Below are positions 39,111-60,454 of a DNA stretch of 64,000 nucleotides, piece by piece. The first letter of the stretch is position 1. The number at the start of each line of letters is the position of its first letter. The stretch is taken from contig JBGSTS010000020.1 in NCBI GenBank assembly GCA_041736435.1, forward strand, positions 119 to 64,118. Reading direction: 5' to 3'. The notes beneath the pieces are model-generated. The model worked only from the letters and a program-made list of their open reading frames with translations. It was not told the origin of the DNA and ran no database searches. The DNA comes from Desulfobacterales bacterium (GTDB lineage Bacteria > Desulfobacterota > Desulfobacteria > Desulfobacterales > SpSt-501). The translations under genes and the position numbers were made by a program.

Positions 39111-39137
39111 GTGAGTAAAAGGTTAGGTTTCGGTTAT
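39111..39137 (-). promoter_or_regulatory. Candidate Pho box array (phoU promoter)
   Basis: The plus strand has GTGAG (39111), GTTAG (39122) and GTTAT (39133). On the minus strand that is ATAAC-N6-CTAAC-N6-CTCAC. The period is 11 bp and the array is about 70-95 nt upstream of the phoU ATG. Confidence 0.5.
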
Positions 39138-39224
39138 CCATATCATATCCGAGGGCACTGCAAAATGCCCGATTTCTGCATGGGTTGCCGGCTTCACCAT
39201 CTTGCGGCAAACGCCTCACCATAA

Positions 39225-39262
39225 ATAATCAATATTTAGTGGTTGTCTAACATCGGGCTAAC
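39225..39262 (+). promoter_or_regulatory. Candidate Pho box array (phoH side)
   Basis: ATAAT (39225), TTAGT (39236), CTAAC (39247) and CTAAC (39258), all exactly 11 bp apart. Confidence 0.5.
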
Positions 39263-39280
39263 TACATGTTGTTAATTACC

Positions 39281-39309
39281 TTGACCTCTGGGGCTTTTTT
39301 ATTTACACT
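39281..39309 (+). promoter_or_regulatory. Candidate sigma70-type promoter downstream of the phoH-side array
   Basis: TTGACC (39281-39286), a 17-nt spacer, then TACACT (39304-39309). Confidence 0.3.
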
Positions 39310-39554
39310 ATTTCCGGATACGACGATGCCCATAGCCGATCTCCATGAGCTAAACCGGCCACCCGCCTGTCCCTTCCACCGGATCTGCTCCAACGATCAT
39401 TCGCTTTCTGTTGCCCGTTCGCCGCTGTTGCCGCAATATGCTTGCCCTGAAATTTACCGGAGTTTCATGGGTTCCGCCCCTACCCAACTCGGAAGGGGAG
39501 GGTTTTCCTCAATCGCCCCGCCGCTGACCGCGCCGGGGCTTTCTACGTCCAGAG

Positions 39555-40760
39555 GTGAAACGCATGCTGGATCAGCAGAAGAACTACATCATCGACACCA
39601 ATGTGCTGCTGGAGGACCCCAATTCGCTGGTCAAACTGAGAAACGGCAATGAGAACCACATCTTCATTCCCTACCATGTGCTTCTCGAACTGAACAAAAT
39701 CAAGAAAGACCCGAAGCTGCGCCATATCGTCGCCCGTGTGATCGAGTACCTGGTCGCCAACCCGGACGCATTCAAAGTTCTCCACTCCGACGCTGTCGCC
39801 AACCCATACGTGAACCTCGTGGACAACTTCATTCTGGACGAGATCCAATCCAGCGGCCTGGACAAGCCCATCCTGGTGACCAACGACAAGATCTTCCAAC
39901 TCCAGGCGCGGCTGCGGGGGATCACGAGCGAGATCTACAAGGAGTCGGTGCCGTTCAAGTCCGAGGCGGAATACTTTACCGGCTTCGTGGCCGGCCGAGA
40001 GGAGGCGGTGGCCAACGCCTTCATGTGGAACGACCAGGGCAAGCCCGTGTTTTTCGGGCCCGACGGGGAAAAAGTCATCGACTACCAGCACAAGGTCTGG
40101 AAGGTCGCTCCCCGCAACGTGTTTCAGAACCTGGCCATGGAGCTGATGACCCACCCGGGGATCGACATCGTCTCCGTGCAGAGCGAGGCCGGCTACGGCA
40201 AGAGCTACCTGGCGCTTGCGGCGGCTCTCTATCTCGTGCTCGAACGCAAGGCCTACCAGAAGATCTACGTTATCAAGCCCACCATCGAGATCGGCCAAAA
40301 GCTCGGCTATCTCCCCGGCCGACTCGAAGAGAAGATGGAGCCTTACACACGCTACATCGCCGACCTGCTTGCAAAGCTTCACCGGCTGCGGCCCGCTAAC
40401 AAGGTCTTCGTCGAGGCAGACGCCTACCCGCCCCAGTTCAACTCCAAGATGTTCGAGATTCTGCCTCTGGCGTACATCCGGGGCATGAACATCGACAACG
40501 CCGTGGTTATCATCGACGAGATGCAGAACATGGCCCGCTCGGAGTGCCGCGCACTGCTCTCCCGCATGGGGGAGGGGGTGAAGTGCCTGTGCCTTGGGGA
40601 CACCCGCCAGGTGGACAACCCCTATCTCAACCAGGAAAACAACGGGTTGAACTGGGTGGTCAAGAAATTCAAGGGCAGCCGGATCTACGCCCACATCGTG
40701 CTGAAAGGGGATAAATCCCGCGGCCCCATCACCGATCTGGTCATTTCCACCGGACTCTAA
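39555..40760 (+). CDS. PhoH-family ATPase with an N-terminal PIN domain (YlaK-like)
   Basis: KNYIIDTNVLLEDPNSL is a PIN domain. ...SEAGYGKSYLALAAAL... is a P-loop. ...VIIDEMQNM... is Walker B. ...GDTRQVDNPYL... is also present. The more likely start is the ATG at 39564, with AGAGG upstream. Confidence 0.85.
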   Translation: MKRMLDQQKNYIIDTNVLLEDPNSLVKLRNGNENHIFIPYHVLLELNKIKKDPKLRHIVARVIEYLVANPDAFKVLHSDAVANPYVNLVDNFILDEIQSSGLDKPILVTNDKIFQLQARLRGITSEIYKESVPFKSEAEYFTGFVAGREEAVANAFMWNDQGKPVFFGPDGEKVIDYQHKVWKVAPRNVFQNLAMELMTHPGIDIVSVQSEAGYGKSYLALAAALYLVLERKAYQKIYVIKPTIEIGQKLGYLPGRLEEKMEPYTRYIADLLAKLHRLRPANKVFVEADAYPPQFNSKMFEILPLAYIRGMNIDNAVVIIDEMQNMARSECRALLSRMGEGVKCLCLGDTRQVDNPYLNQENNGLNWVVKKFKGSRIYAHIVLKGDKSRGPITDLVISTGL

Positions 40761-40819
40761 CGGTCGGTGAGGCCGCGCCCGGCTAACTGCAAGGGTTTTA
40801 ATATTACTCCCGGGCTCGG

Positions 40820-40855
40820 GGGAATTAGTCTGCAGCTGATGGGGGCCTAATTCCC
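40820..40855. terminator. Hairpin in the convergent phoH / acyltransferase intergenic region
   Basis: GGGAATTAG-N18-CTAATTCCC, a 9-bp stem. The loop is large, so the call is weak. Confidence 0.35.
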
Positions 40856-40958: not shown

Positions 40959-42833
40959 TCAGCCTGCGTGGTGCCTCTGCGTTTCAGGCACAGGGGGCGG
41001 GGATCCGCTTTCGGCGCAGGCCCCGTGGCAGGCCATCAGCGCGGCGACCCCCGCTTCCCCCATGTAGCGTTCAAGGGTCTTGCGGTCGGTCTGAAGCAGG
41101 TCCACCACGATCAGTCCGTCCATGACGTTGCCGAAATCCCGGTCGATGTTGAACCCCAGCAGCTGCCCGCCCAAGTTGAGATAGTGCCGCAACAGAACCG
41201 GGACCTCGCGCTTCTGGAATTCGATGTCGGCAATCACCGCACAAACCTCCTTGAAATCCTGTAAATGGAGCGTTTTACCGGATTGGGCGCATCCGGGTAT
41301 GCGGATGGGGGCGATTTTGGCCGGCCGCCGTGGCCGGACCATGAGAGAGAGGTCCTTCGCCTGACTGTGCTGAAGCAGGGTAGTTGCGATCAGGCGCCGC
41401 GATAAATCGCTGTAGTCGCGGCTGATGCTGACCGGTCCGAAGAGCCGCCGATACTGAGGTTGGCGGGCGATGAAACTGCCGATGCCTTTCCACAGGAGCA
41501 GCAGGGGGGCATAGGAGCGCTGATATTCCGGACGGACGAAGGAGCGGCCCAGCTCCAGCGCGGACCCCAGCCTTTTAAAAAATTGCGCCTGGGTGTGAAA
41601 CAGGGTAGTGGTGTAGAGGCCTTTCCGGCCGAATCGACTCAACAAAATATCGGTTCGGCCGAGGCGGTAGGCACCGACAATTTCGGATGCGGCCTCGTTC
41701 CAGACAAACAGATGCAGGTAGTGAGGATCGAATCGGTCCAGGTCTAAAGGCTTCCCGGTCCCCTCGGACGCCGCCCGGAACGAGAGTTCCCGCAGACGGC
41801 CGATCTCTTGCAATAGATTGGGTATTTGCCCAGCCTCAGCCTGCCACACGGAAAAATCACCGCTCTGCGCCAGGCGCTGCCAGGCAGGCAGGCGCTCGAT
41901 CTCGCGGCGACAGACATCCGGGTCCTGGGGGATAGCCAGCGGCTGCTCCCTGGGCACGTGAGGCATTTTTTCGATCGCGGCCGTCCGGATCCCGGCTGAC
42001 GGTTTGAATCCCAGAATGAGGGTCCTCCAACGCAGGTACTCCACCCGTCGTGAATCATCGGCGTAGCGTTGAATCCAGCGAAACGGAATGGGGGCCCCGA
42101 TTTTGACCTCGATCGTCTTGCGCTCCTTGTTGATCAACTCCCTCGCCAGCAGAGCCGTACGCAGGCGCGGGTGGATCATGCCGGCGGCATGGAAGACAAT
42201 GCCGTTGCGGCCTTTCACGAAAACCGGAAGAACCGCAGCCCGAGTCCTGCGGGCAATGAGGCCGGCGGCCGGGCTCCAGGCGCTGTCGGCAATCTCGCAG
42301 CTCGCTAATTTGAAATGCGAGACTTCACCGGCGGGAAAAACGAGAAGCATGCCTCCGTCGTTTACCCAGCGCAGGGCCGCCCGGATCGACCCGGTATTGC
42401 TGCGGGCCGATCCGGGCCGGTTGAACGGGTCGACCGGGATGGTCAGGCGTCGAAGCTGAGGGATGCGGTTCAGCATGAAGTTGGCCATGATTTTCAGATC
42501 CGGCCGAACGGACATCAGCAGATCGGCTAGGATAATCCCCTCGATCCCTCCGAAAGGGTGATTGGCAACCACCACCAAAGACCCCGTGCGGGGTATCTGA
42601 TCGATTTCATGCAGGCTGGGCTCGCAGCGAACACCCATTTCGGACAGCAAGGCGTGCATGAAGCGTTTCGGCTCCTTGACGTGGGCCACCCGATCATAAA
42701 GCATGGCGCACCGGGTGAGCCCAAGAACGTGCTCGATCGGCCGGAGCCCGCGGGCGGCCCATCGACTTGTTTTGGATTCAGGCAAATCCGGTAAAATCGA
42801 AAAAATGGGTTTGTGTGAAACAGTCGTCTCCAT
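40959..42833 (-). CDS. Bifunctional acyltransferase with a PlsC-type O-acyltransferase domain and an OlsB-like GNAT N-acyltransferase domain (OlsF-like aminolipid synthase)
   Basis: The N-terminal half has VVANHPFGGIEG and ...LLVFPAGEVSH... (lysophospholipid acyltransferase blocks). The C-terminal half has ...FRAASEGTGKPLDLDRFDPHYLHLFVWNEAASEIVGAYRLG..., the hemolysin/OlsB-like N-acyl-amino-acid synthase signature. Confidence 0.7.
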   Translation of the reverse strand: METTVSHKPIFSILPDLPESKTSRWAARGLRPIEHVLGLTRCAMLYDRVAHVKEPKRFMHALLSEMGVRCEPSLHEIDQIPRTGSLVVVANHPFGGIEGIILADLLMSVRPDLKIMANFMLNRIPQLRRLTIPVDPFNRPGSARSNTGSIRAALRWVNDGGMLLVFPAGEVSHFKLASCEIADSAWSPAAGLIARRTRAAVLPVFVKGRNGIVFHAAGMIHPRLRTALLARELINKERKTIEVKIGAPIPFRWIQRYADDSRRVEYLRWRTLILGFKPSAGIRTAAIEKMPHVPREQPLAIPQDPDVCRREIERLPAWQRLAQSGDFSVWQAEAGQIPNLLQEIGRLRELSFRAASEGTGKPLDLDRFDPHYLHLFVWNEAASEIVGAYRLGRTDILLSRFGRKGLYTTTLFHTQAQFFKRLGSALELGRSFVRPEYQRSYAPLLLLWKGIGSFIARQPQYRRLFGPVSISRDYSDLSRRLIATTLLQHSQAKDLSLMVRPRRPAKIAPIRIPGCAQSGKTLHLQDFKEVCAVIADIEFQKREVPVLLRHYLNLGGQLLGFNIDRDFGNVMDGLIVVDLLQTDRKTLERYMGEAGVAALMACHGACAESGSPPPVPETQRHHAG

Positions 42834-43051
42834 AATGTCTCCTCCGCGTCAAATAGTTTTTCCGGGGCCCTGCATCCCCCTGCACCGGGAGCAGATGGGA
42901 TGCCGCGTGGCTGGGACCGGCGTGGCGGCGGCAGCCCCCGGTCGCAGCTGCTTATTACCGACTCTGATGTTGCATGAGCCTAGCGGGCGGGGTTTAGGAG
43001 CGTGCTAGATTGCGGCTAAAATTCCATGCGGTGGGGATCTGGCATTCAAAA

Positions 43052-43078
43052 CTAACCGCAGGTTAACTTACAGCTAAC
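43052..43078 (+). promoter_or_regulatory. Candidate Pho box array (divergent OlsF-like / lysE intergenic region)
   Basis: CTAAC (43052), TTAAC (43063) and CTAAC (43074) at an 11-bp period. The last unit is 88 nt upstream of the lysE-family ATG. Confidence 0.55.
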
Positions 43079-43165: not shown

Positions 43166-43798
43166 ATGGATCAGCTTTTGTTTTGCAAGGGGGTCGCCCT
43201 GGGCCTTTTGTTGTGTGCCCCTCTCGGCCCGGTCGGTATCCTCTGCATCCGGCACACGCTGGTGGACGGCCGGCTGGCAGGCATGCTTGCGGTGCTGGGC
43301 GCTGCTATGGTGGATGCGGTCTACTGCCTCATTGCGGCCCTCGGCATTACGCTGGTCGCGGGATTTTTAGAACAAGGCCGCTCCTGGATTCAGCCTCTCG
43401 GCGGGTTGGTGCTGGCCTTTGTCGGGTTTCATCTGACATGCGAGCCCTCCGGCGCGCGCCGTGTTTCCGGGACACGCGGCTATAACCTCATGGGGGCCTT
43501 CCTATCGACGTTTTTGCTGATGCTTTCCAACCCGCTGCCGATCCTGATCATCAGCGCAGCCATTTCCGCCATCAGCGGACCCGCGTGGGTGTCGATGCCG
43601 ACCGCGGCGCTCGTGTTGATGGCCGGCGTGTTCTGCGGTTCAATCCTGTGGGCGCCGATCCTCATCATCGGCGCATCCATGCTCAAACCCCTGCTGAAGC
43701 GCGAGCACCTGCGGGTCCTGCAGCGGGCCAGCGGCATCGCACTTCTAATCTGCGGGTTTTTCCTCGGTATCTCACCTTTTTTCCGCCACCCCGGTTAA
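43166..43798 (+). CDS. LysE/RhtB-family amino-acid exporter
   Basis: 210 aa with six hydrophobic helices and the N-terminal ...APLGPVGILCIRHTL... typical of LysE-type translocators. Confidence 0.8.
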   Translation: MDQLLFCKGVALGLLLCAPLGPVGILCIRHTLVDGRLAGMLAVLGAAMVDAVYCLIAALGITLVAGFLEQGRSWIQPLGGLVLAFVGFHLTCEPSGARRVSGTRGYNLMGAFLSTFLLMLSNPLPILIISAAISAISGPAWVSMPTAALVLMAGVFCGSILWAPILIIGASMLKPLLKREHLRVLQRASGIALLICGFFLGISPFFRHPG

Positions 43799-43810
43799 CT
43801 TCATCAACAT

Positions 43811-43848
43811 TTAGCGGTGTTTTAATCCGGGACTAACAGCATGTTGAT
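43811..43848 (+). promoter_or_regulatory. Candidate Pho box array (PHP-glycosyltransferase promoter)
   Basis: TTAGC (43811), TTAAT (43822), CTAAC (43833) and TTGAT (43844) at an 11-bp period. The array ends 50 nt upstream of the ATG at 43899. Confidence 0.5.
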
Positions 43849-43898
43849 CAAATTCGGCTTGATATGAGCGATTCGATCAATCCCTTTTCAGAGGAGCT

Positions 43899-45794
43899 AT
43901 GATGAAAGCGGACCTGCATGTGCATTCGCGGCACTCGACCCGGCCCTCCCAGTGGTTCCTGCAAAAGATCGGCTGCCCGGAAAGCTTTACCGACCCGCTG
44001 CAGCTCTACCACATTGCCCGGCGGCGGGGCATGACGCTGGTGACCATCACGGATCACAACAAGATCGACGGTGCCCTCGAGATCGCTCATCTTCCCGGGG
44101 CCTTCGTGAGCGAAGAGGTGACCGCCTATTTTCCCGAAGACGGCTGCAAGGTCCATGTGCTGGTCTACCGCATCACCGAGGCGCAGCACGCGGAGATCCA
44201 GAAAATCCGCACCGACGTTTACGACCTCCTCCGCTACCTAAAGGATGCGGCCATACCCTGTGCCCTGGCCCACCCGATGTATGCGGTCAACGATCGGTTG
44301 ACGGTGGCCCACATCGAAAAGCTCTTGCTGTTGTTCCGCAATTTCGAATTGAACGGCGACAGCAACCCGGAGTCCAACCGCAGCCTGGAGACGGTGCTGT
44401 CAGCCTTGACCCCGGCTGACATTGAGCGTCTGGCGAACACCCATGGCATCTCCCCGCTCTGGCCGGAACCCTGGCGCAAAAATCTGATCGGCGGCTCCGA
44501 CGACCACAGCTCGCTCAACATCTCCCGCAACTTCACCCAGGTGGAGGGCGCCGGGAGCGTCGATGCGTTCCTGGCCGGGATAGAGTCCGGGCAGGCACGG
44601 GTGGTCCAGCGGCCCTCCTCGCCGCAGGCCATGGCTCACAACCTCTACAGCATCGCCTACCAGTTTTATCGTCAGAAACTCGGGTTGAGCCGGGATGCAC
44701 CGCAGCATTTCCTGCTGCGCTTCATCGACCGGTGCCTGCGGCTAACGGACGGGTCTGAATCGGGGTTTCTGGCACGGCTGCATTTTCTGTGGCAATACCG
44801 CCGGATCCGCAAAATACAGGGCAGCATTCCCGGCCCCCTGGTGGAGCTCCTGCAGCAGGAGACGTCGCGGTTGCTGGAAGAGGATCCGGCGCTTTTCGAT
44901 CTGCCCGAGGCGGGCGACTGGATGTCCAAGCGGATGGAGGAGCGTTGGTTCGACTTCATGGACAGGATGTCCAACCGGATCCTGCTCGGATGCGCCAACC
45001 ATCTCCTGGGCCATGTGTCGGGGGCCAACCTGTTCAACATTTTTCAAACCATCGGCTCGGCCGGAGGGTTCTGCACGCTGCTGACCCCCTATGCGATGGC
45101 GTTTTCCCACTACAACCGCCAACGGCAGTTCAGCCAAGCCGTGTTGGAACGGTTTGGGCATGCCGTGCCTGACGATCCGACGCCATCGCAGGCGTGCGCT
45201 GTGTTTGCGGACACTCAAGCCGACGGGCAGGAATCGATCCGAACGCATGCTCGCAGCCATCCGGGGCGGCGGTGCGCGCTGTTGACCTGCGATACCGGGG
45301 TTGAATCCGAGGCCGTCAAGCGTTTTGAGCCCATCGGGGTCTACGAATTCGACGAGCAGCCGCACTACCGGCTGGTCTACCCGCCGGTCCTGGAGATGCT
45401 CGACTACTGCTACACCGGCCGATTCAGCCGTGTGCACCTGGCCACCACCGGCCCGGCCGGTTTGGCCGGCCTGTTCATCGGTCGCTTTCTGAAGCTGCCG
45501 CTGGAGGCCGACTTCAGCGACCTGCTGCCGCGCATGGCGCGGGAGATCACCCGGGATGGGTTCATCGAGGAGCTCTGCTGGCGCTACACGGTGTGGTTCT
45601 ACAGCCAGATGAATACGGTTTACGTCTCCTCCGGAGCCCAGCTGGCCGAGCTGGCCCAGCACGGTATTCCCCGCGCAAAACTCAGGGTGGCACCGCAGCC
45701 GACGGATTCGGCATCGCTCTGGGGCGATGCCCGCACAGCCCCCGCCGGTGCTGCCTCCCGGCGGCTGCGGCGGCAGGCCGGCGCCCGCATCTGA
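43899..45794 (+). CDS. PHP-domain phosphoesterase fused to a GT-B (GT4-like) glycosyltransferase N-terminal half. The C-terminal nucleotide-sugar half appears to be missing.
   Basis: MKADLHVHSRHS...VTITDHNKIDG is a PHP metal-binding motif. The C-terminal ~200 aa resembles a GT4 N-domain (...RVHLATTGPAGLAGL...VYVSSGAQLAELAQHGIPRAKLRV). The ORF then ends in low-complexity sequence, where RGVD...EX7E would be expected. Confidence 0.65.
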   Translation: MMKADLHVHSRHSTRPSQWFLQKIGCPESFTDPLQLYHIARRRGMTLVTITDHNKIDGALEIAHLPGAFVSEEVTAYFPEDGCKVHVLVYRITEAQHAEIQKIRTDVYDLLRYLKDAAIPCALAHPMYAVNDRLTVAHIEKLLLLFRNFELNGDSNPESNRSLETVLSALTPADIERLANTHGISPLWPEPWRKNLIGGSDDHSSLNISRNFTQVEGAGSVDAFLAGIESGQARVVQRPSSPQAMAHNLYSIAYQFYRQKLGLSRDAPQHFLLRFIDRCLRLTDGSESGFLARLHFLWQYRRIRKIQGSIPGPLVELLQQETSRLLEEDPALFDLPEAGDWMSKRMEERWFDFMDRMSNRILLGCANHLLGHVSGANLFNIFQTIGSAGGFCTLLTPYAMAFSHYNRQRQFSQAVLERFGHAVPDDPTPSQACAVFADTQADGQESIRTHARSHPGRRCALLTCDTGVESEAVKRFEPIGVYEFDEQPHYRLVYPPVLEMLDYCYTGRFSRVHLATTGPAGLAGLFIGRFLKLPLEADFSDLLPRMAREITRDGFIEELCWRYTVWFYSQMNTVYVSSGAQLAELAQHGIPRAKLRVAPQPTDSASLWGDARTAPAGAASRRLRRQAGARI

Positions 45795-45851
45795 CACCCA
45801 CCGATCCCCAGCCCGATCGGCTGCAGGGCCTGAGATGCGGCTCATAAAAAA

Positions 45852-45878
45852 ATAACCCTGCCTTAACCGAGGGGTAAC
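45852..45878 (+). promoter_or_regulatory. Candidate Pho box array (PAP2/glycosyltransferase promoter)
   Basis: ATAAC (45852), TTAAC (45863, within CTTAACCG) and GTAAC (45874) at an 11-bp period. The array ends 40 nt upstream of the ATG at 45918. Confidence 0.55.
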
Positions 45879-45917
45879 GATGCGAGGGTATCATCGGCCC
45901 ATTCCAAGGAGAATCCT

Positions 45918-46445
45918 ATGCGCTATTTGGTCGATAGCATCACGCGTTGGGACACCCAGTGGTTCAGCGCTATTTTTGGATTGGGCGGAAAACGGCTCCT
46001 ATCCCTTCTGATGCCGTGGGTGTCGCGCAGCGGCGACGGCTATTTCTACCCGGTGCTGGCTTTGGGTCTGATAGCGATCGATGATGCGCAGGGAAGGCGC
46101 TTCCTGACGGCGGCCCTGGCGGCATTTGCCCTTGAACTGCCGGCATACAAGCTGATCAAGAACTGCGTCAAGCGGGATCGGCCCACCGACAAACTGCCGG
46201 CCGTATGCGGCCGCATTGTCCCAAGCGATCGGTTCAGTTTTCCTTCAGGCCACGCGGCGGGCGCCATGCTGATCGCAACCCTTCTTGCCCACATGGTGCC
46301 GGTCGTTTTTCCGCTGGCCGCCGCCTGGGCTCTATCGGTTGGCTTTTCGCGGGTCTATCTGGGGGTTCATTACCCCACCGATGTCCTGGCGGGAATGGCC
46401 ATCGGCATGCTGAGCGCCCTCTTCGGCATTGCTCTGGCGGCTTGA
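45918..46445 (+). CDS. PAP2-family (phosphatidic acid / lipid phosphate) phosphatase
   Basis: All three PAP2 motifs are present: KNCVKRDRP, FPSGHA and SRVYLGVHYPTD. It is a membrane protein. Confidence 0.85.
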   Translation: MRYLVDSITRWDTQWFSAIFGLGGKRLLSLLMPWVSRSGDGYFYPVLALGLIAIDDAQGRRFLTAALAAFALELPAYKLIKNCVKRDRPTDKLPAVCGRIVPSDRFSFPSGHAAGAMLIATLLAHMVPVVFPLAAAWALSVGFSRVYLGVHYPTDVLAGMAIGMLSALFGIALAA

Positions 46446-46459: not shown

Positions 46460-47506
46460 ATGAAGATTCTTTATGGAGTCCAAGGCACCGGCAACGGCCA
46501 CATCTCCCGCTCTCGCGAAGTCATCCGTTATCTGAAGGAAGATGGTCACGAGGTCCAGGTGATCGTCAGCGGCCGGGACCGGGCTTTGCTCTGGGATATG
46601 GAGATCTTCGAGCCATACACGGCGCTGCGGGGGCTCACCTTCGCCACCCATCGCGGCCGGATCCAACACCTGCGCACGGCGCGCCAGTTGAACCTGATCC
46701 GGTTCTACGTCGACATCCGCGCCTTCGATGCTCGTGGGTTCGATCTGGTCATCACCGACTACGAGCCGGCAACCGCGCGCATTGCCCGTCGCCATCGGCT
46801 GCCATCGATCGGGATCGGACACCAGTACGCCTTTTGCCACGACATTCCGGTCAAGGGCCAAAACCCTCTGGCGCGCTACATCCTGGATCACTTCGCGCCC
46901 GTGGATTATCCGATCGGACTGCACTGGCACCACTTCGAACAGCCGATCCTGCCGCCGGTGGTGCCGGAATTTTCTTCCCGGCCGGCGCCGGTTCCCGGAA
47001 AGATACTCGTCTATCTCCCGTTCGAGGAGCTTTCCGATATCCTGCGGCTGCTTGGCCCCTTCGATGCTCATGCGTTTTATATCTACCATCAGCTGCAGCA
47101 GCCCGAGGGCACGGGCCATTTGAACTTGAGGCCCTATTCGCGCACCGCCTTTCTCAACGACCTGACCGATTGCAGCGGGGTCATCACCAACGCCGGTTTC
47201 GAGCTGGTCAGCGAGGCTCTGGCACTCGGCAAAAAAATCCTGGTCAAACCGCTCACCGGGCAGATGGAGCAGCTCTCCAATGCGGCGGCGCTCGCCGAGC
47301 TGAACCTGGGGCTGACAATGAAGAGGCTTGACAGGGAGGAAGTGGACCGGTTTTTGGGAAAACCCACCTTAGTCCGGGCGCAATACCCAAACGTTGCCCG
47401 CATGATCGCCGATTGGATTCCTAAAGGGGACTGGGGGAGTCTGGCCGAGCTCTCTCGCGCAGCCTGGGCGCAGACTCACTATTCCGGAGGTTTCAGTTCG
47501 GGCTAA
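46460..47506 (+). CDS. GT-B glycosyltransferase (MurG/MJ1255-like)
   Basis: MKILYGVQGTGNGHISRS... is the glycine-rich N-terminal motif of this family. The ATG is 15 nt after the PAP2 stop. The ORF-track start at 46205 overlaps PAP2. Confidence 0.7.
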   Translation: MKILYGVQGTGNGHISRSREVIRYLKEDGHEVQVIVSGRDRALLWDMEIFEPYTALRGLTFATHRGRIQHLRTARQLNLIRFYVDIRAFDARGFDLVITDYEPATARIARRHRLPSIGIGHQYAFCHDIPVKGQNPLARYILDHFAPVDYPIGLHWHHFEQPILPPVVPEFSSRPAPVPGKILVYLPFEELSDILRLLGPFDAHAFYIYHQLQQPEGTGHLNLRPYSRTAFLNDLTDCSGVITNAGFELVSEALALGKKILVKPLTGQMEQLSNAAALAELNLGLTMKRLDREEVDRFLGKPTLVRAQYPNVARMIADWIPKGDWGSLAELSRAAWAQTHYSGGFSSG

Positions 47507-49905: not shown

Positions 49906-50159
49906 CGCAGTCTCATATCGCTGATTGCGAACGCCGATGCAGCGGCATCATTTTACGTGGTTGAGGCTCGTAAATTTTTCGAGCGGGGCGGGTGCCGGAT
50001 ATTCGAACAGACTCCGGTCCGGCTGTTTGACTCTGATGTGAAATAGGTTAGAAATCGGTTGCCGGTTGTCATTGGTGCGGGCAAAGAGGAGCTGCCGCTC
50101 ATCTCGGGCAATCCTTAGACGAAGGCAGCCCAAAAGGAAAAAGCTGGATAGCGGCAGGT

Positions 50160-51404: not shown

Positions 51405-51461
51405 CATTAATTCCGCTTGTTGCGACATTAAAACATTGACGGACCCATTAAAATCCATTAA
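51405..51461 (-). promoter_or_regulatory. Candidate Pho box array (GT28 glycolipid synthase promoter)
   Basis: The hexamer CATTAA (TTAATG on the minus strand) occurs four times, at 51405, 51426, 51446 and 51456. Spacings are 21, 20 and 10 bp. The nearest unit is 73 nt upstream of the ATG at 51332. Confidence 0.45.
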
Positions 51462-52072: not shown

Positions 52073-52076
52073 GGCC

Positions 52077-52562: not shown

Positions 52563-52835
52563 TCTGTTTGACCGCCCGTTGCCATGCTTGCTGAGATCGA
52601 AAAAACCTTGCTGATGACGCTTCAGAATAACTTACACCATGGGGCCGGAGGATGGCAATGACTAGCAGGTTAGAGTTCCGCTAGAAACCAAGTGCGGCAT
52701 GCGATCCACCCGATGGCGTTCACAAGGCCTTTTATCTTCCCGGAATCGTATATTTTTATTTTTCGTTATCAACAGCGTGTTCATAACCAGGAGTATCCAA
52801 CCGTACATCCGAGGAAATCGTGGCCTTGCGAACAA

Positions 52836-52862
52836 CTAACCCGAGGCTAGTATAATCCTAAC
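52836..52862 (+). promoter_or_regulatory. Candidate Pho box array (2-aminoethylphosphonate operon promoter)
   Basis: CTAAC (52836), CTAGT (52847) and CTAAC (52858) at an 11-bp period, about 140 nt upstream of the phnS ATG. Confidence 0.55.
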
Positions 52863-53003
52863 AGAAGCGCGCGAGGCTCGCTTCACATTGCCTGTTCTTC
52901 TTGAGGTGAACGGGAGTGTCAGGTGACGGTGCAGCCTGGTATGCGCGTGTCGGCGATCGACACGCGATCTTTTTAATGTTGTTCAGCGAAAGGAGATCCA
53001 CCC

Positions 53004-54047
53004 ATGTTGCCGTCGGTTCTTGCCCGCTTCAAATCTTTCGGACTGCTGGCCTGCGTCCTGGCACTGTTTATCGCCGCACCTTCCGCGGTGCTGGCCGCAG
53101 AGGAGATCATCGTCTACACCGCATTAGAGGATGACGAAATCCCCAAGTACCTCGCCCTCTTCAAGCAGCAGCATCCGGATATCACCGTCAAGATCGTGCG
53201 GGACTCCACCGGCATCGTCACCGCCAAGCTACTGGCTGAGAAGGCCAACCCCCAGGCCGATGTCGTCTGGGGAACGGCGGCAACCAGCCTCATGCTCTGC
53301 AAGCAGGCGGGAATGCTGGAACCCTTTGCGCCCAAGGGACTCGAGAAGGTGAAACCGCTCATGCGCGACTCCGCCAACCCGCCGGCCTGGGTGGGGATCA
53401 AGGCCTGGGAAACCGGGTTCTGCGTCAACACGATCGAATCCAAGAAGCTGAAACTGCCGGCCCCCGAATCCTTCGCCGACTTGACCAAACCGGTCTACAA
53501 GGGCCAGATTTCAATGCCCAACCCCGCCTCCTCCGGGACCGGCTTCCTGACGGTTTCCGCCGTGCTGCAGATGATGGGCGAGGCCCCGGGCTGGGAGTAT
53601 CTTGACAAGTTGCACGCCAACATCGCTCGCTACACGCACTCCGGCTCCAAGCCCTGCAAGATGGCGGGCGCCGGCGAGGTTCCGATCGGGATCTCCTTCG
53701 CCTACCGCGGGTTCATGCAGAAGCAGAAGGGCGAGCCGGTCGAGACGGTTTTCCCCAAGGAGGGCTCCGGCTGGGACGTAGAAGCCAACGCCATGATCAA
53801 GAAGGCCGCCATCAAACCGGCGGCTAAAATCTTCCTCGATTGGGCCATCAGCGAGCCGGTGATGAAGGAGTACGGCAAGATCTATCCGGTGACCGCCTAC
53901 CCGAGCGGCAACCCCATCCCCGAGGGATACCCGAAGGAGCCCGAAAAGCAGCTCGCCAAGAACGACTTCGACTGGGCCGCCAAAAACCGCGAGCGCATCT
54001 TGGCGGAATGGACCAAACGCTACGACAGCAAAAGCGAGGCCAAATAG
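53004..54047 (+). CDS. phnS: 2-aminoethylphosphonate-type ABC transporter, periplasmic binding protein (FbpA/PhnS family)
   Basis: It has a signal peptide, then [13 protein letters not shown]...PASSGTGFL.... The operon context with phnX and phnW supports the call. AAAGGAG lies upstream. Confidence 0.8.
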
Positions 54048-54066
54048 CTCCTACTGCCGCCGCTTG

Positions 54067-54093
54067 CGAGCCGGATGGCCGCCATCCGGCTCG
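54067..54093 (+). other. Intercistronic stem-loop after the binding-protein gene
   Basis: CGAGCCGGATGG-ccg-CCATCCGGCTCG, an 11-12-bp perfect stem between phnS and the ATPase gene. Confidence 0.6.
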
Positions 54094-54112
54094 GATTCGA
54101 ACGAGGACCCGT

Positions 54113-55219
54113 ATGGGCAACTCCTTTGATCTTTCGCCCTATTTAAAAGTCGCCGGCGTCACCAAAACCTTCGGGGAGTTTACCGCCCTCCAGGATGTCT
54201 CCTTCAGCGCCGAGCGCGGCGAGTTTCTGTGTGTGCTGGGCCCGAGCGGCTGCGGTAAAACCACCGTACTGCGCATCCTGGCCGGACTGGAGGTTCAGAC
54301 CGGCGGCAGCGTGCACATCGAGAACCGGGACGTCTCCGGCCTGCCGATATCCAAACGCAATGTGGGCATCGTTTTCCAGTCCTATGCTCTCTTTCCGAAC
54401 CTGACCGCAGCCCAGAACGTGGCCTACGGGTTGAAGAGCCGGCGGTCTCAAAAAGAGCGCAGCGCGCAGCGGGTGGCGGAACTGCTTGAGCTGGTCGGGC
54501 TGACAGGCATGGGTGAGAAGTACCCGGCGCAGCTGTCGGGAGGCCAGCAGCAGAGGGTGGCGCTGGCCCGCGCCATGGCCCTCTCGCCGGACCTGCTGCT
54601 ACTGGACGAGCCGTTGTCGGCGCTGGACGCCCAGGTGCGTGTCCTGCTGCGCCAGGAGATCCGCCAGCTGCAGCAGCGGCTCAAGGTGACCACCATCATG
54701 GTGACCCATGACCAGGAGGAGGCGTTGACCATGGCCGACCGCATTCTGGTCATGGACAAAGGCCGCCTGGTGCAGAGCGGGACCCCGCTTGAAATCTATG
54801 ACCGACCGGCCACCCCGTTTGTGGCCGCCTTCATCGGATCCATGAATTTTTTAGAGAACGCGGTCAAGGTGGATACGGCGGTCTACCGAATCGGCGGCTG
54901 CGACCTGCGGGTGGCAGGGGAAAACGGATCGCAGCGGCTGGCGATCGGCGGCAGCGCCACGCTCGGCATCCGACCCGAGGACATCCTGATCTGGTCCGAC
55001 CGCCGCGATGCACCCAACACGCTCCCGGCCCAAGTGGAGGCGATTGAATACCGCGGTCCGCTCTTCAGGGTGGGCCTGCGGCTGGGGCCCTGCGGCCCCG
55101 GGGCCGCGCGGGTCGAAGCCGACATCCCCTCGGAGAAGGTTCGCCGCCTGGAGCTTCGGCCGGCCGCGACGCTGCCCGTGCAGCTGCCAGAGGACCGGCT
55201 CCGCGTGTACACCGCTTAA
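54113..55219 (+). CDS. phnT: ABC transporter ATP-binding protein (PhnT-like)
   Basis: GPSGCGKTT (Walker A), [14 protein letters not shown] (signature) and LLLLDEP (Walker B). The start is MGNSFDL at 54113. Confidence 0.9.
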
Positions 55220-55223
55220 TCCG

Positions 55224-56981
55224 ATGCACGCTTCGGCCCGTCAGGCGTCACCCATTGTGACGAAGGAGCTTTTGAGCAGCCTGAGCACAGAGGCCTGGAT
55301 CTCATGGTTGCTGATCCTGCTGACGTGTGCCTGGCTTCTCGTCGTCGTGGTGCTGCCGGTCGTCCAGCTGGTGGCCAAAAGCCTGCAGGACAGCCAGGGC
55401 GGCTTCGTGGGGCTGGCCAATTACGTCGCCTATTTCAAGAACCCGGCCCTGTCGAACTCGCTGGCCAATAGCCTCTACGTGTCGGCGTCAACGACCCTTA
55501 TTTCCGTCGTGTTGGGATTCATTTTCGCTTTCGCCCTGACCCGCTCGCGCATCCCCGGCCGCGGCATCTTCAAAGGCATCGCCATGATGCCTCTTTTCGC
55601 CCCGACGCTCCTGAACGGGATCGCACTGGTCTACCTCTTCGGCCGAAAGGGCCTGATCACGGGGGGGTTCTTCGGCACCTTCGCCGGCGTCGACATCCAG
55701 GTTTACGGGACGGTCGGCATCATCATTTCCGAGGCGATCTACACTTTTCCCCAGGCTGTGTTGATCCTCTCCATCGCTCTGAACCTTGCCGATGCCAGGC
55801 TCTACGAGGCTTCGGAGTCTTTGGGTGCCCGCTGGCTGCGCACCTTCTTTTGCGTCACCCTGCCCGGCATCAAATACGGACTGCTCAGCGCGGTGTTCGT
55901 CTGCTTCACCCTGGCCTTCACCGATTTCGGCGCTCCCAAGGTGATCGGCGGCAACACCAACATCCTCGCCACGGACATCTACAAGCAGGTCATCGGCCAA
56001 CAGAACTTCACCATGGGGGCCGTGGTCAGCATCGTGCTCCTGGTCCCGACCGTGGTCGCCTTTGTCGTGGATCGCATCGTGCAGCGCCGCCAGGTGGCCA
56101 TGATCGCCGCCCGGTCGGTCCCGCTGCAGCCCAAGCTCAGCTTGCTGCGGGATGGCGCCTTTTTTGTATTTTGCGCTCTAGTGGCAGCGGCGATCCTCGG
56201 TTTCTACGCCACCGCCCTTTTCGCCTCGCTGGTCAAGGTCTGGCCCTACCATCTGGAACTGGGGCTATGGCACTATCATTTCACCGGTACCGGCGGCGGT
56301 GGCTACCCGGCCTTCTGGAACAGCATCCGGATGAGCCTTTATTCTGCGGCCGCTGGCACGGTCATTATTTTTGCAAGCGCGTACCTGATCGAAAAGAGCC
56401 GCAAGCTGAATCTCCTGCGCCGGTCCGCCTATTTTCTCTCCATTCTGCCCCTCGCCCTGCCCGGGCTCGTGATCGGGCTGGCCTACATCTTTTTCTTCAA
56501 CCCCCGGGGCTGGGAATTCTTCGGGTGGTGGGTGCCAAACCCGTTCAGTTTCCTATACGCCACCATGGCCATCCTGGTCATCAGCAACATCGTGCATTTC
56601 TACACCGTCGGTTTCCTGACCGCCACAACCGCTTTGAAACAGCTGGACGACGAATTCGAGACCGTGTCCGCATCCATGGGGGTCCCGTTCTACAAAACCT
56701 TTACCCGGGTGACCGTGCCGGTCTGCCTGCCGGCCGTGCTGGAGATCGGCATGTACTTTTTCGTCAACTCCATGGCGACCGTGTCGGCGGTCATTTTTCT
56801 CTACTCGGCGGACATCCCCTTGGCCTCCGTGGCGGTGGCTAACATGGACGATGCCGGCGACACGGCCCCCGCGGCCGCCATGTCGGTGATGATCGTGCTT
56901 GCCAATATCGGGGTTCGCGTGATTTTCGGGGGATTGACCCGCAGCATCAAACGGCGCAGTCAGGCCTGGGCCAACGGCTGA
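55224..56981 (+). CDS. phnU: Fused double ABC permease (PhnU/PhnV-like)
   Basis: 585 aa with about 12 helices and two EAA-like loops ([15 protein letters not shown] / [15 protein letters not shown]). Confidence 0.85.
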
Positions 56982-57013
56982 GCCGCAACCGCCTGCGAGC
57001 AGGGAGGCGCATC

Positions 57014-57847
57014 ATGACGACTGTTGTGCGTAAACCGCTCCACACCGGTCCACTGCGCGCGGTAGTGCTGGACTGGGCGGGAACGGCCGTCGACTACGGC
57101 TGCCTCGGGCCTGCGGCCGTTTTTGTGGAGGTTTTCAAGAAGTTCGGCATCGCGGTCACCACGGCCGAGGCCCGGCAGTTTATGGGGCTGAAGAAAATCG
57201 ACCACATCCGCAGCATGTGCCGGCTTCCGGCGGTGGTTGCCGCGTGGCAATCCGTTCACGGGTGGGCACCCGATGAGAGCGATGTCGACGCGCTTTACGC
57301 CGAAACCGAACCGATGATGGTTTCCGCGATCGCCGGCCATGCCGAGCCCATCCCGGGGCTTCTCCCCTTCGTGCAGGCCATGCGGGAGAAGGTTATCAAG
57401 GTTGGCTCCTCGACCGGCTACACACGGGCCATGATGGAGGTCATGGTGCCGGAGGCCCGCCGCAGGGGATACTTTCCGGATGCCGTGGTCACCTCTTCGG
57501 ATGTGCCGGATGGGCGGCCCTATCCCTGGATGTGCTACCTGAACGCCATTCAACTTCAGGTTTACCCCATGCAGGCCATGGTGAAAATCGGCGACACGCC
57601 AAGCGATATCTACGAAGGGCTCAACGCCGGGATGTGGACCATTGGCCTGACCAAGTCCGGCAACCTGCTGGGGCTGCCGGCTGAAGCGTGCGATCGTCTG
57701 GAGTCGAACGAGCTCTCTTGCCGTCTTGCCTCCGCCGAGCGCGACCTGAATGCAGCCGGCGCGCATTACACGGCGGAGGGCATCTGGGCGGTGCTGCCGA
57801 TCATCGAAGAGATCAACGCCCGCCTTGCAGCCGGGGAGCAGCCCTGA
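57014..57847 (+). CDS. phnX: Phosphonoacetaldehyde hydrolase (phosphonatase)
   Basis: ...AVVLDWAGTAVDYGCLGPA... is the HAD motif I with the PhnX-specific context. It is followed by ...KIGDTPSDIYEGLNAGMWTIG.... Confidence 0.9.
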   Translation: MTTVVRKPLHTGPLRAVVLDWAGTAVDYGCLGPAAVFVEVFKKFGIAVTTAEARQFMGLKKIDHIRSMCRLPAVVAAWQSVHGWAPDESDVDALYAETEPMMVSAIAGHAEPIPGLLPFVQAMREKVIKVGSSTGYTRAMMEVMVPEARRRGYFPDAVVTSSDVPDGRPYPWMCYLNAIQLQVYPMQAMVKIGDTPSDIYEGLNAGMWTIGLTKSGNLLGLPAEACDRLESNELSCRLASAERDLNAAGAHYTAEGIWAVLPIIEEINARLAAGEQP

Positions 57848-58098
57848 GCCGACGGCAATGGGTTCCTGAGGCCGGTGGCCGGCGCAGGTCCGTCTGGGAG
57901 GTGGTCCGCGTGACAGTGGACATGGGTCGCTCCGAAACGGGGGCTCAGGTTCAAGGTGTCCGATGGCAGCTTCTCTACCCGCACCCCGCCGCTGACCATC
58001 GAACGCACGGAGCTGGACCGTGCCCTGGACATCCTGGATGACGCCCTCCAGGAAGTTGAAACCGGGACGACTACCCGAATCGACTAAAAGGAGTCACC

Positions 58099-59235
58099 AT
58101 GGAATTCCCGGAACTGCCCGAAAATCCCTACCTGCTCCTCACCCCGGGGCCCTTGACCACTACGGCGAGCGTCAAAGCCGTGATGCTGCGCGACTGGTGC
58201 ACCTGGGACGAGGATTACAACCGGCTCGTCCAGGCGATCCGCCGCGAGCTTACGGCACTGGCCACGGCCGAGCCGGGTTTCACCACCGTACTGATGCAGG
58301 GCAGCGGCACCTTCGGGGTGGAAGCGGTTGTGACCACGGCCGTACCGGAGGGGGGCAAGCTGTTGGTGCTCGCCAACGGCGCCTACGGCCGCCGGATCGC
58401 CCACATCGCGCAGCGTGGCCGCATCGCGGTCCAGGTTCTGGACAGCGGTGAAACCTCCCCGCCGGATATCGACCGGATGTCGGCCGTCCTTCAGAAAGAG
58501 CCGTCCATCACTCACGTGGCGGTTGTCCACTGTGAAACCACCACCGGCATGCTGAACCCGCTCGAGGCCATCGGCCGCGTGGTCAAACCGCTCGACCGGG
58601 TCTTGATCGTGGATGCCATGAGCAGCTTCGGCGGCATCCCCCTGGATGCGGTCGCCATTGGAGCGGATTATCTCATCAGCAGCGCCAACAAATGCATCCA
58701 GGGGGTGCCGGGCTTCTCCTTCGTGGTGGCCCGCCGGCAGGAGCTTGAAAAAACAAAGGGCCGTGCCCGCTCGCTTAGCCTGGACCTATACGATCAGTGG
58801 GCGACCATGGAGAACCACCCCGGCAAGTGGCGCTTCACCTCGCCCACCCATGTGGTGCACGCCTTTTATCAGGCCCTCCAAGAGCTCAGGGCCGAAGGCG
58901 GTGTCGCTGCCCGCAATGCGCGCTATCGAAAAAACCGGGATTCCCTGGTCGACGGCATGCAGGCCATGGGTTTTACGCCGCTGCTGTCGCCTGCCTTTCG
59001 CTCCCCTATTATCACGGCGTTTCACAGCCCAGCGAACCCGGCTTATGATTTCAGGAGATTCTACGACCTGCTGAAAAAGCAGGGGTTTGTGATCTACCCC
59101 GGAAAAGTCACCGAGCTCGATACATTTCGCATCGGCACCATCGGCGATGTTCATCCCGCGGACATCGAGCGTCTTCTAAAGGCGGTCGATGCTTCCATGT
59201 ACTGGAAACAATCTCGTTATTCCCCCGGCAAATGA
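58099..59235 (+). CDS. phnW: 2-aminoethylphosphonate--pyruvate transaminase
   Basis: ...[32 protein letters not shown]... and ...[16 protein letters not shown]... (PLP lysine). It is a class-V aminotransferase. Confidence 0.9.
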
Positions 59236-59310
59236 ATTCATCTTTGACTTCTTCCGGCTTTTAACTCCAAAGGGCTCACTTCGGCTAGTAGGCCCTTTGC
59301 CTTGGAACCG

Positions 59311-59348
59311 CTAACTATTTACTAATGCAAACTTAATGACCGGCTAGT
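59311..59348 (+). promoter_or_regulatory. Candidate Pho box array (DUF5132-like gene promoter)
   Basis: CTAAC (59311), CTAAT (59322), TTAAT (59333) and CTAGT (59344), all exactly 11 bp apart. Confidence 0.55.
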
Positions 59349-59530
59349 TTAAGTCGGGTGTAATCTGCAATTTTCAATAGGTAATTAAATGACTTTTCTT
59401 CTCGACACGGCGGTATCTTGCTTGTTAGTTTTGCTGCAAATGCCGGGTGTTTTCCGGCGCCTGAGCGTCGAAGCATGGATCGAACCATGAAGGGCGGCCC
59501 GGTCTGAACGGGTCGAGCAAGGAGGGAGTC

Positions 59531-59818
59531 ATGTTCGGTATCACCAACGGAATCCGCTTCGGGGGTGCGGTGGCCATCGGCGCCGCAGCCGTACTGCTGG
59601 CACCGGTCGTGTTGCCGATCGTTGCCGCTGTGTTGAAACCGGTCGCCAAGTCGGTCATCAAGGGCGGCATCATGGCCTTCGAGGGTGCGAAGGTGGCTTT
59701 GGCCGAAACCCAGGAAACGGTCGAGGACATCGTGGCCGAGGCCAAGGCCGAAATAAAGGCCGAAATATCCGAAAGCCGCAAGGTCCCGGCCAAGACCACC
59801 AAAAAGCAGGCTGCCTGA
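59531..59818 (+). CDS. Small membrane protein (DUF5132-like)
   Basis: 95 aa. It has an N-terminal hydrophobic hairpin (FGGAVAIGAAAVLLAPVVLPIVAAVL) and a charged C-terminal helix (AEAKAEIKAEISE). AAGGAGGGAG lies upstream. The family assignment is from memory. Confidence 0.55.
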   Translation: MFGITNGIRFGGAVAIGAAAVLLAPVVLPIVAAVLKPVAKSVIKGGIMAFEGAKVALAETQETVEDIVAEAKAEIKAEISESRKVPAKTTKKQAA

Positions 59819-59828
59819 TCCGCAGGCG

Positions 59829-60350
59829 GTGCACGGGATCTTTATGCCGGAAGTGCCCGAGGCCTTTATCGCCCATCACTCCCCCAATCGGCTGAGGATT
59901 CGAATCCCCTCCCGGCGGGGGGACTCGGCTTTCTTCGCCTCGGTGCAGGAGGCCTATGCCCGGAAAGGTGAGCAGCCGGAGGCGAACCCGCATACGGCGA
60001 GTCTGCTCTTTGTCGGCAAAGCCGCTGAGGGCGAGGCGGTTGCCGACCTCGGGCGCGAGCAGGGTCTTTTCGAGCTTCGAATCGGAACCCCACCCCATCG
60101 GCCCCTCATGCACGAGGCGGTCAAGCCGGTGGCCGGTCTCAACCGCTCCATTCAGCAGGTGACGGGCGGCAGGATTGATCTTCCCAGCGGCTTCTTCCTG
60201 ATGCTGCTGGGGTTCGGCATCTACGAAATTCTCCGCGGCCGCTTCTCCACTCCACCGTGGTACACCGCGTTCTGGTATGCGTTCGGACTTGTTTCGATGT
60301 ACGTGATCGAAAAGGAAATCCGGGCCATCCCCGGCCATGAACACGACTGA
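59829..60350 (+). CDS. HMA2-like (cysteine-less heavy-metal-associated fold) domain protein with two C-terminal TM helices
   Basis: ...HHSPNRLRIRIPSRRGDSAFFASVQEAY...HTASLLFVG... resembles the GRLR(V/I)R-type HMA2 signature. The C-terminus is hydrophobic. The start may be the ATG at 59844. Confidence 0.5.
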   Translation: MHGIFMPEVPEAFIAHHSPNRLRIRIPSRRGDSAFFASVQEAYARKGEQPEANPHTASLLFVGKAAEGEAVADLGREQGLFELRIGTPPHRPLMHEAVKPVAGLNRSIQQVTGGRIDLPSGFFLMLLGFGIYEILRGRFSTPPWYTAFWYAFGLVSMYVIEKEIRAIPGHEHD

Positions 60351-60416
60351 CGGTTTCCACCGTCGCCGCCCCTGAGACTGCGCGTTTAGGGGCCCGGCTC
60401 TATGGCAGCCGAGCCT

Positions 60417-60454
60417 TTAACCGACTTCTAACGATTTCCGAACACCCTCATAAC
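60417..60454 (+). promoter_or_regulatory. Candidate Pho box array (P-type ATPase promoter)
   Basis: TTAAC (60417), CTAAC (60428), CGAAC (60439) and ATAAC (60450) at an 11-bp period. The array ends about 100 nt upstream of the ATG at 60558. Confidence 0.55.

Follow-up and report, generated by a model that had tools for sequence, protein, structure and literature searches.

According to our analysis, a stretch of 64,000 nucleotides from a Desulfobacterales bacterium (contig JBGSTS010000020.1 of assembly GCA_041736435.1; hereafter, the window) carries, upstream of genes for phosphate signalling, phosphonate use and membrane lipid synthesis, arrays of a short direct repeat with an 11-bp period which we regard as candidate Pho boxes. 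The arrays, with the genes that they precede, are the following (units are given 5' to 3' on the strand of the gene, and the more degenerate ones stand in parentheses).

38384..39040, minus strand: phoU, encoding the phosphate signalling complex protein (Pfam PhoU, 160 bits; NCBIfam TIGR02135, 204.7 against a cutoff of 130)
39089..39137, minus strand: phoU array, ATAAC/CTAAC/CTCAC/CTAGC/GTAAT with 5' bases at 39137/39126/39115/39104/39093, located 60-97 bp upstream of the phoU ATG in steps of 11 bp
39225..39262, plus strand: phoH2 array, ATAAT/TTAGT/CTAAC/CTAAC
39281..39309, plus strand: sigma-70-like phoH2 promoter, TTGACC-17-TACACT, directly 3' of the array, with both hexamers kept in relatives
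39564..40760, plus strand: phoH2, a PIN-PhoH (PhoH2-type) gene (Pfam PhoH and PIN_4)
40959..42833, minus strand: gene for an OlsF-like bifunctional acyltransferase (ornithine/amino-lipid synthase; Pfam Acyltransf_2 and Acetyltransf_5), whose best NCBIfam match is OlsF with 394.8 bits, under the cutoff of 620
42993..43019, minus strand: olsF array, TTAGC/CTAGC/CTAAA at 43019/43008/42997 (15.1 bits)
43052..43078, plus strand: lysE array, CTAAC/TTAAC/CTAAC (25 bits, the top array of the window)
43166..43798, plus strand: gene for a LysE-family exporter (Pfam LysE)
43800..43848, plus strand: PHP-GT4 array, (TTCAT)/TTAGC/TTAAT/CTAAC/(TTGAT)
43899..45794, plus strand: gene for a PHP phosphoesterase/GT4 fusion (PHP-GT4), recognised by its motifs, AlphaFold2 model and Foldseek matches
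45841..45878, plus strand: PAP2 operon array, (CTCAT)/ATAAC/TTAAC/GTAAC
45918-46445, plus strand: gene for a PAP2 phosphatase (Pfam)
46460-47506 (likely extent), plus strand: gene for an MJ1255/VC2487-family glycosyltransferase (Pfam/NCBIfam), which probably forms an operon with the PAP2 gene
52836..52862, plus strand: phnS operon array, CTAAC/CTAGT/CTAAC
53004..59235, plus strand: 2-aminoethylphosphonate uptake and catabolism operon, encoding PhnS2 (NCBIfam score 477, cutoff 393), an ABC ATPase, a permease, the phosphonatase PhnX (318, cutoff 220) and the transaminase PhnW (577, cutoff 401)
59311..59348, plus strand: DUF5132 array, CTAAC/CTAAT/TTAAT/CTAGT
59531-59818, plus strand: gene for a DUF5132 protein (Pfam)
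59829-60350, plus strand: gene for an HMA_2/CoBaHMA protein (Pfam)
60417..60454, plus strand: P-type ATPase array, TTAAC/CTAAC/CGAAC/ATAAC
60555..63608, plus strand: gene for a type IIA (Ca2+-like) P-type ATPase that bears an HMA_2/CoBaHMA domain at its N-terminus (Pfam), scoring 558.7 with the NCBIfam PMR1-type Ca-ATPase model, under the cutoff of 798

A sequence-only reading of the window had described nine promoter-proximal arrays of NTAAY pentamers, together with a gene annotation most of which was confirmed by Pfam and NCBIfam. Direct reading of the letters found the pentamers at all of the listed positions. Eight of the nine arrays consist of three to five co-oriented units at exactly 11 bp, as had been proposed for the first five and the last three, and each of them points towards its downstream gene, while the remaining one, upstream of a GT28 gene, is not phased at 11 bp. 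Only three arrays contain three strict NTAAY units, and several units are degenerate (CTCAC, CGAAC, TTGAT). The olsF array on the minus strand, a two-unit site upstream of mgsA and weak sites at 50051 and 38148/38137, both on the minus strand, had been overlooked.

The phasing of these words is specific to 11 bp. Triples of [CT]TA[AG][CT] occur seven times in the window at this spacing and never at spacings of 8-10 or 12-14, and the distance from one YTAAC to another shows peaks of 11 and 22 bp. With a position weight matrix (PWM) of five columns, summed over three units, 15 triples reached at least 16 bits at spacing 11, whereas spacings 7-10 and 12-16 yielded no such triple. The earlier estimate that fewer than 0.01 triples are expected by chance holds, because the computed expectation is <0.003 in the window even with the word frequencies of non-coding DNA. 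Matches of at least 12 bits are confined to 39.1-60.5 kb; the first 38 kb, consisting of housekeeping genes (those for an electron transfer flavoprotein, arginyl-tRNA synthetase, gyrBA, Rnf and others), contain none, as had been claimed.

The same phased word was recovered from a comparison set of 65 loci (1.03 Mb), retrieved with the PIN-PhoH protein of the window and independent of the window itself. Nearly all of these loci belong to metagenome-assembled genomes (MAGs) of Desulfobacterales, several labelled Desulfatibacillum, and the best PIN-PhoH match is 95% identical; the genome behind the window is Desulfatibacillum-like. The three-unit model gave 241 matches at spacing 11, whereas each of the other spacings gave 5-31, and 224 of the 241 lie outside called open reading frames (ORFs) in DNA of which about 84% is coding, so that the motif is not common inside coding sequences. 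In a motif-free search of all pentamers in the intergenic DNA, CTAAC recurred most often at 11 bp from itself, with 42 pairs where other distances gave 0.09 on average; next came TAACA and CCTAA, both overlapping CTAAC. The consensus derived from 149 units is a-n-n-(C/T)-T-A-A-C-(A)-n-(a/t), with nearly all of the information in five bases. The loci from Maridesulfovibrio, Desulfohalobiaceae and 'Falkowbacteria' hold too little Pho-related intergenic DNA to define a motif.

When the first co-oriented ORFs downstream of 150 arrays in the related loci were clustered and annotated, arrays were found upstream of pstS (10/12), pstC (8/15), phoU (9/15), the alkaline phosphatase gene phoA (3/3) and a gene for a PhoB-like regulator (6/9), and also upstream of the genes for PHP-GT4 (10/14), PAP2 (8/16) and a phosphoenolpyruvate (PEP)-utilising enzyme (6/9). 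The canonical Pho genes (pstS, pstC, phoU, phoA and PhoB-like) thus carry arrays in 36 of 54 cases, versus 19 of 358 for all other genes (odds ratio 36, Fisher p = 1e-24). Before unrelated genes the phased motif is thus uncommon, and the enrichment at pst, phoBR and phoA that the sequence-only reading had named as a check is borne out in these relatives. Moreover, a PWM trained solely on the canonical Pho promoters of these foreign loci finds all eight of the 11-phased window arrays, essentially only at spacing 11, with the phnS array as its best match (23.4 bits); since it recovers the eight arrays, the circularity inherent in the window-derived matrix is removed. The PhoB-like regulator, which would be autoregulated, has PhoB (TIGR02154) as its best family, and its closest solved structure is that of RegX3 (Sensory transduction protein regX3, 2oqr), and RegX3 is a phosphate-responsive protein. 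Its gene is translationally coupled to that of a PnpS/PhoR-type kinase in two loci (L024 and L040) and adjoins an array-bearing pstS-pstC-pstA-pstB-phoU operon in a third (L029).

The arrays of the window are therefore very probably Pho boxes of a PhoB/PhoP-type response regulator, forming a local Pho regulon, a reading proposed from the window alone and now supported by the comparative genomics of its relatives. Another OmpR-family or direct-repeat regulator could bind them instead, in response to envelope, lipid or cation stress, with targets partly in common with the Pho system. Many of the window targets are indeed membrane-lipid or cation-transport genes and not classic Pho genes, the candidate regulators fall under the PhoB equivalog cutoff, and the kinase scores best as PnpS. 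We consider such a regulator unlikely, however, in view of the occurrence of the same motif in relatives before pstS, pstC, phoU, phoA and a PiT transporter gene, and before the PhoB-like regulator gene itself, adjoining pstSCAB-phoU; no second candidate regulator was found associated with the arrays.

The geometry of the arrays bears on how they may act. Between tandem genes in the related loci, 48 arrays are co-oriented and 8 anti-oriented with the downstream gene (p = 5e-8). In 52 of 150 arrays a TANNNT hexamer lies 15-18 nt past the start of the last strong unit, versus about two (1-8) per position elsewhere. In the window, -10-like hexamers are found upstream of the PAP2 gene (TATCAT at 45889, 15 nt past the start of the last unit) and of the DUF5132 gene (TAATCT at 59361, 17 nt past it). 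Array-bearing promoters mostly show no -35/-10 consensus pair, with the exceptions of phoH2 and of the promoter at the GT28 cluster. It could be argued that the arrays are repression operators or helically phased bending elements, as the 11-bp period is near the helical repeat and, at phoH2, the array is followed by a complete sigma-70-type promoter. Nevertheless, the arrays are directional and co-oriented with the genes, they stand where a -35 would be expected, with a constant interval to the -10-like hexamer downstream, and most of these promoters have no -35. All of this is the geometry of PhoB-activated promoters, and we deem the alternative very unlikely.

Orthologous promoters of phoH2, PAP2, PHP-GT4 and olsF show the pattern of a footprint, where the units are kept while the spacers drift. 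The units of the phoH2 array are kept in L001-L004 and L006 with variable spacers, and the olsF pattern TTAGC-N6-CTAGC/CTAAC-N6-CTAAA is kept upstream of olsF in L001, L005, L007 and L040. Arrays are likewise present at the lysE orthologues of L001 and L002, and that of PAP2 is kept in L001, L040, L064, L017 and L057. Upstream of PHP-GT4, four to five units are kept down to orthologues of 54% identity, and a Desulfobacter locus (L188) contains a single array in 22 kb, located directly before the PHP-GT4 orthologue. The locus L040 is a syntenic 'Pho island' in which arrays precede mgsA, the unit of lysE with a monogalactosyldiacylglycerol (MGDG) synthase gene, olsF, PHP-GT4 and phoB; its 176-aa gene before the MGDG synthase gene is a lysE fragment. 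The notion that the AT-rich promoter DNA of a 60% GC genome holds such TAA-like words by composition alone has in its favour the low information of a unit with five informative bases and the higher frequency of NTAAY words in non-coding DNA (0.0055 per position versus 0.0017 in the whole window), but it is in practice refuted because of the spacing controls (seven triples against <0.003 expected, and no match at nine control spacings) and of the phylogenetic footprints, where the same phased word stands at orthologous promoters of independent genomes whose spacers have diverged.

In a metagenome-wide exact scan for four YTAAC at 11 bp, most matches were true 11-bp satellites and telomere-like repeats, and about 20 matches with variable spacers were informative. 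The arrays of this latter kind precede pstS (twice), a gene for a PhoU-LMWPc fusion, a PHO4/PiT transporter gene and a DUF5132-HMA_2 pair. Two metagenome contigs with a GC content of 0.35-0.36 (L133 and L142) carry four TTAAC at 11 bp before pstS and before the gene for a protein of about 980 aa, which by its appearance resembles a TonB-dependent receptor. Their arrays hint that the same half-site may serve as a Pho box in further phyla.

Several observations weigh against the interpretation of the arrays as Pho boxes. Each unit provides only about 7-8 bits of information, and many units are degenerate. The pstSCAB and phoBR genes of the organism itself lie outside the window, and the core of the regulon beyond phoU was tested only in relatives, where phoH2 has an upstream array in just 8 of 45 cases. 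The phoH2 promoter of the window, with its good -35/-10 pair downstream of the array, has a geometry unlike that of the other arrays. The PhoB-like regulators score 249 and 239 bits, under the NCBIfam PhoB trusted cutoff of 296. No array was found at the Syntrophobacter locus of the PHP-GT4 orthologue, so that within Desulfobacterota either the motif or this target is not shared by all.

The literature searched yielded no Pho box described for Desulfobacterales, and we compared the unit with those known from other bacteria. The E. coli Pho box consists of tandem 8+3 bp units located 10 bp upstream of the -10 (PMC1906773). It has in common with the arrays described here the 11-bp direct-repeat period, the head-to-tail orientation towards the gene, the substitution for the -35 element, with a constant interval to the -10, and the targets pstS, phoA, phoU, phoB and phn. 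However, its half-site CTGTCAT (CTGTCAT-N4) is not matched by the (C/T)TAAC(A) derived from 149 units, and it comprises two units where the arrays here often have three to five. The Synechocystis SphR box is made of at least three tandem 8-bp units, CTTAACCT, with 3-bp linkers and hence an 11-bp period (PMC1906773), and the resemblance to it that the sequence-only reading had pointed out was confirmed from this source in the TTAAC/CTAAC core, the period and the copy number of three or more. Single window units match it, such as CTTAACCG at 45862, whereas its flanking C at -1 and CT at +6/+7 are not kept; SphR belongs to a different phylum, and the units here show conservation only at five bases and, weakly, for an A at +6, with little information at the flanking positions of the 8-mer. 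Among the half-sites compared, that of SphR is the closest to the unit described here.

Among sulfate reducers, the nearest experimentally validated relative is the box of D. vulgaris PhoB (DVU1083), a direct repeat of (c/t)GT(n)AC validated by DAP-chip and electrophoretic mobility shift assay (PMC3333781, PMC6456213). Its instance AGGTTACAGCATAGTTAC, read as GTTAC-N6-GTTAC, has the same 11-bp period, and it shares the T-N-A-C skeleton and the pst and phoU targets. The GTTAC core differs from CTAAC at two positions, with G at position 1 in only 4% of the units here, and the window units do not match the half-site (c/t)GT(n)AC; P-free-lipid or phosphonate targets are not reported for D. vulgaris PhoB. 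The B. subtilis PhoP box, from another phylum, is built of TT(A/T/C)ACA repeats separated by 5+/-2 bp, a more tolerant spacing; the hexamer TTAACA is identical to the TTAAC(A) variant of the units described here. In Streptomyces, the core of the PhoP box is a different, G+C-rich 11-nt repeat unit. Direct repeat units of 11 nt are nonetheless common to Streptomyces PhoP (PMC2275107), again of a different phylum, and to the arrays of the window. As judged from these comparisons, the putative Pho box of the window is a lineage-specific version of a PhoB-type switch of the usual kind, with nothing new in its mechanism.

That a PhoB-type protein binds the arrays, that it activates and does not repress, and that inorganic phosphate (Pi) is the signal are inferences; activation of the PhoB type from head-to-tail sites is proposed because the arrangement of array and -10 is that of E. 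coli PhoB. In the mechanism that we envisage, a phosphorylated PhoB/PhoP-type regulator (OmpR family, winged helix) would bind the tandem head-to-tail sites with one monomer per 11-bp unit, of consensus (C/T)TAAC(A/c)N5, all on one face of the helix, so that two to five units would accommodate one to two-and-a-half dimers. With the array usually in place of the -35 and a -10-like hexamer 15-18 nt beyond the point where the last strong unit begins, the bound regulator would replace the -35 contact and recruit sigma-70 RNA polymerase at low Pi, a step suggested by the position, co-orientation and fixed -10 distance of the arrays. About ten neighbouring transcription units would thus be switched on together as a 'Pho island', comprising phoU and PIN-PhoH, a part for phospholipid replacement (the OlsF aminolipid synthase, the LysE exporter, the PHP/GT4 fusion, and PAP2 with its glycosyltransferase), the uptake and catabolism of 2-aminoethylphosphonate, probably methylglyoxal synthase, and, as a candidate, the DUF5132/CoBaHMA/P-type ATPase module.

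Two leaders of the window deserve a comment. According to the alignment, phoH2 likely starts at ATG 39564, after the ribosome-binding site GAGGTG, rather than at GTG 39555. Its leader of about 260 nt (39310-39563, plus strand) is kept in the closest relatives over the first ~60 nt (GGATACGACGATGCCCATAGCCGATC...) and variable in the remainder. Rfam returned nothing credible for the whole window at the gathering threshold or for the phoU-phoH2 spacer at E<=1, and no RNA element is claimed here because the conservation is limited to those first ~60 nt. In the phnS leader (52944-52975, plus strand), a strong terminator-like hairpin of 10 pairs (7 G-C), followed by a T-run, lies downstream of the array and ahead of the start codon of phnS (53004) and may be an attenuator.

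Beside the arrays, the window contains the GT28 cluster and some weaker sites, with the following features.

38133..38148, minus strand: possible two-unit site upstream of a molybdopterin oxidoreductase gene, CTAAC-N6-CTAAT, located in an AT-rich spacer (13.7 bits with the external PWM; uncertain)
47503..49905, minus strand: gene for the PEP-utilising enzyme, 800 aa, with a PPDK_N and a mobile domain, similar to PEP synthase or to rifampicin phosphotransferase
~50025-50066 (50051), minus strand: weak in-phase site upstream of the PEP-utilising enzyme gene, GCAAC/CTAAC/CACAT/CAAAC
50160..51332, minus strand: GT28 gene for an MGDG-synthase-like glycolipid synthase (Pfam MGDG_synth; NCBIfam diglucosyl-diacylglycerol synthase, 214.9, below cutoff)
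51405..51461, minus strand: cluster of four TTAATG upstream of the GT28 gene, at 51405/51426/51446/51456
52077-52562, minus strand: mgsA, encoding methylglyoxal synthase (Pfam/NCBIfam)
52669..52684, minus strand: two-unit mgsA site, CTAGC-N6-CTAAC at 52684/52673 (12.5 bits)

The four-copy cluster upstream of the GT28 gene is real, with the spacings of 21, 20 and 10 bp that had been given for it, and within 57 bp it holds four of the ten TTAATG of the whole window; being out of the 11-bp register, it was rejected as an 11-bp array. That it is a degenerate Pho box belonging to this system all the same is conceivable, but less likely than not. The cluster has the TTAAT core in common with the arrays, its spacings are near-integral helical turns, the product of the gene is a glycolipid synthase, and the GT28 orthologue of L040 lies downstream of the array-bearing lysE fragment within the syntenic island. 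Conversely, the cluster scores nothing with either PWM, and the promoter directly downstream of it possesses a sigma-70-like -35/-10 pair of its own (TTGATT-18-TATCAT, 51396-51367, minus strand). The cluster could be the site of a different regulator or consist of irregular Pho boxes.

Methylglyoxal synthase is probably a member of the Pho island; the mgsA orthologue of L040 (2752-3308) has a full array of 19.5 bits; Pho control of this enzyme would make sense as a means of releasing Pi from dihydroxyacetone phosphate. The site at 50051, before the PPDK-like gene, is too weak for us to claim it as a Pho box. Array-bearing loci of the PEP-utilising enzyme include L007, L009, L012 and L046. Low-molecular-weight phosphatase (LMWPc)/ArsC-like genes are found recurrently downstream of arrays (L003, L004 and L008), and on the metagenome contig L128 a PhoU-LMWPc fusion lies behind a four-unit array.

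The PHP-GT4 fusion is the most conserved non-canonical target of the arrays. In its protein, a PHP-family metal phosphoesterase is joined through a long helical linker to no more than the N-terminal half of a GT4 (GT-B) glycosyltransferase, and the motifs DLHVHS, TDHN and GSDDHS are invariant or nearly so in 51 homologues, which come in a form of about 620 aa and one of about 817 aa with an added Glycos_transf_1 half. A sequence search against the PDB gave no match; with the AlphaFold2 model (pLDDT 80.7), Foldseek matched the N-terminus to PHP phosphoesterases and the C-terminus to GT-B enzymes. PHP-GT4 could be an enzyme both for the removal of phospholipid head groups and for glycosylation. 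D. alaskensis G20 requires OlsF and Agt lipids when Pi is limiting, and a regulatory motif was not reported (PMC5193443). OlsF-like and glycosyltransferase genes would here be linked to phosphate limitation in a similar way, with the candidate regulatory sites visible. Phospholipid-replacement systems of the PlcP-Agt type, under PhoB control, are known in other bacteria; unlike in these, the phosphoesterase here is not of the PlcP type but a PHP-family domain fused to a GT4 half-domain, and PHP-GT4 may stand in for PlcP-type lipases in lipid remodelling.

The genes encoding DUF5132, the HMA_2 (that is, CoBaHMA) protein and the CoBaHMA-fused Ca-type P-type ATPase form a cluster (59311-63608) with two arrays, and four YTAAC are also located directly upstream of a DUF5132-HMA_2 pair on the independent metagenome contig L140 (2968-3780). 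Binding of anionic lipids has been proposed for CoBaHMA domains in published work, which also describes DUF5132 and CoBaHMA genes together with those for calcyanin and a Ca/H exchanger in cyanobacteria forming intracellular CaCO3. That this module belongs to the phosphate-starvation regulon is a possibility that the arrays raise and that we regard as rather doubtful. If true, the module, with its place next to the phospholipid-replacement genes, might adjust the handling of cations (Ca2+) or sense the loss of anionic phospholipids while membranes are rebuilt without phosphorus, and phosphate starvation would then provide a first condition under which two functionally uncharacterised domains could be tested.

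Taken as a model of the Desulfobacterales Pho box, two to five phased copies of (C/T)TAAC(A)N5 would be usable for this lineage of sulfate reducers, which are abundant in marine and freshwater sediments and for the most part uncultured, and phosphate-starvation regulons could be read straight from their MAGs. Methylglyoxal synthase, the LysE exporter, the PEP-utilising enzyme and the DUF5132/CoBaHMA/P-type ATPase module are unexpected candidates for membership. The regulon appears to be concentrated in an island that would combine Pi signalling, phosphonate scavenging and the replacement of phospholipids by aminolipids and glycolipids, a content which is relevant for interpreting the P-free lipids of anoxic sediments.

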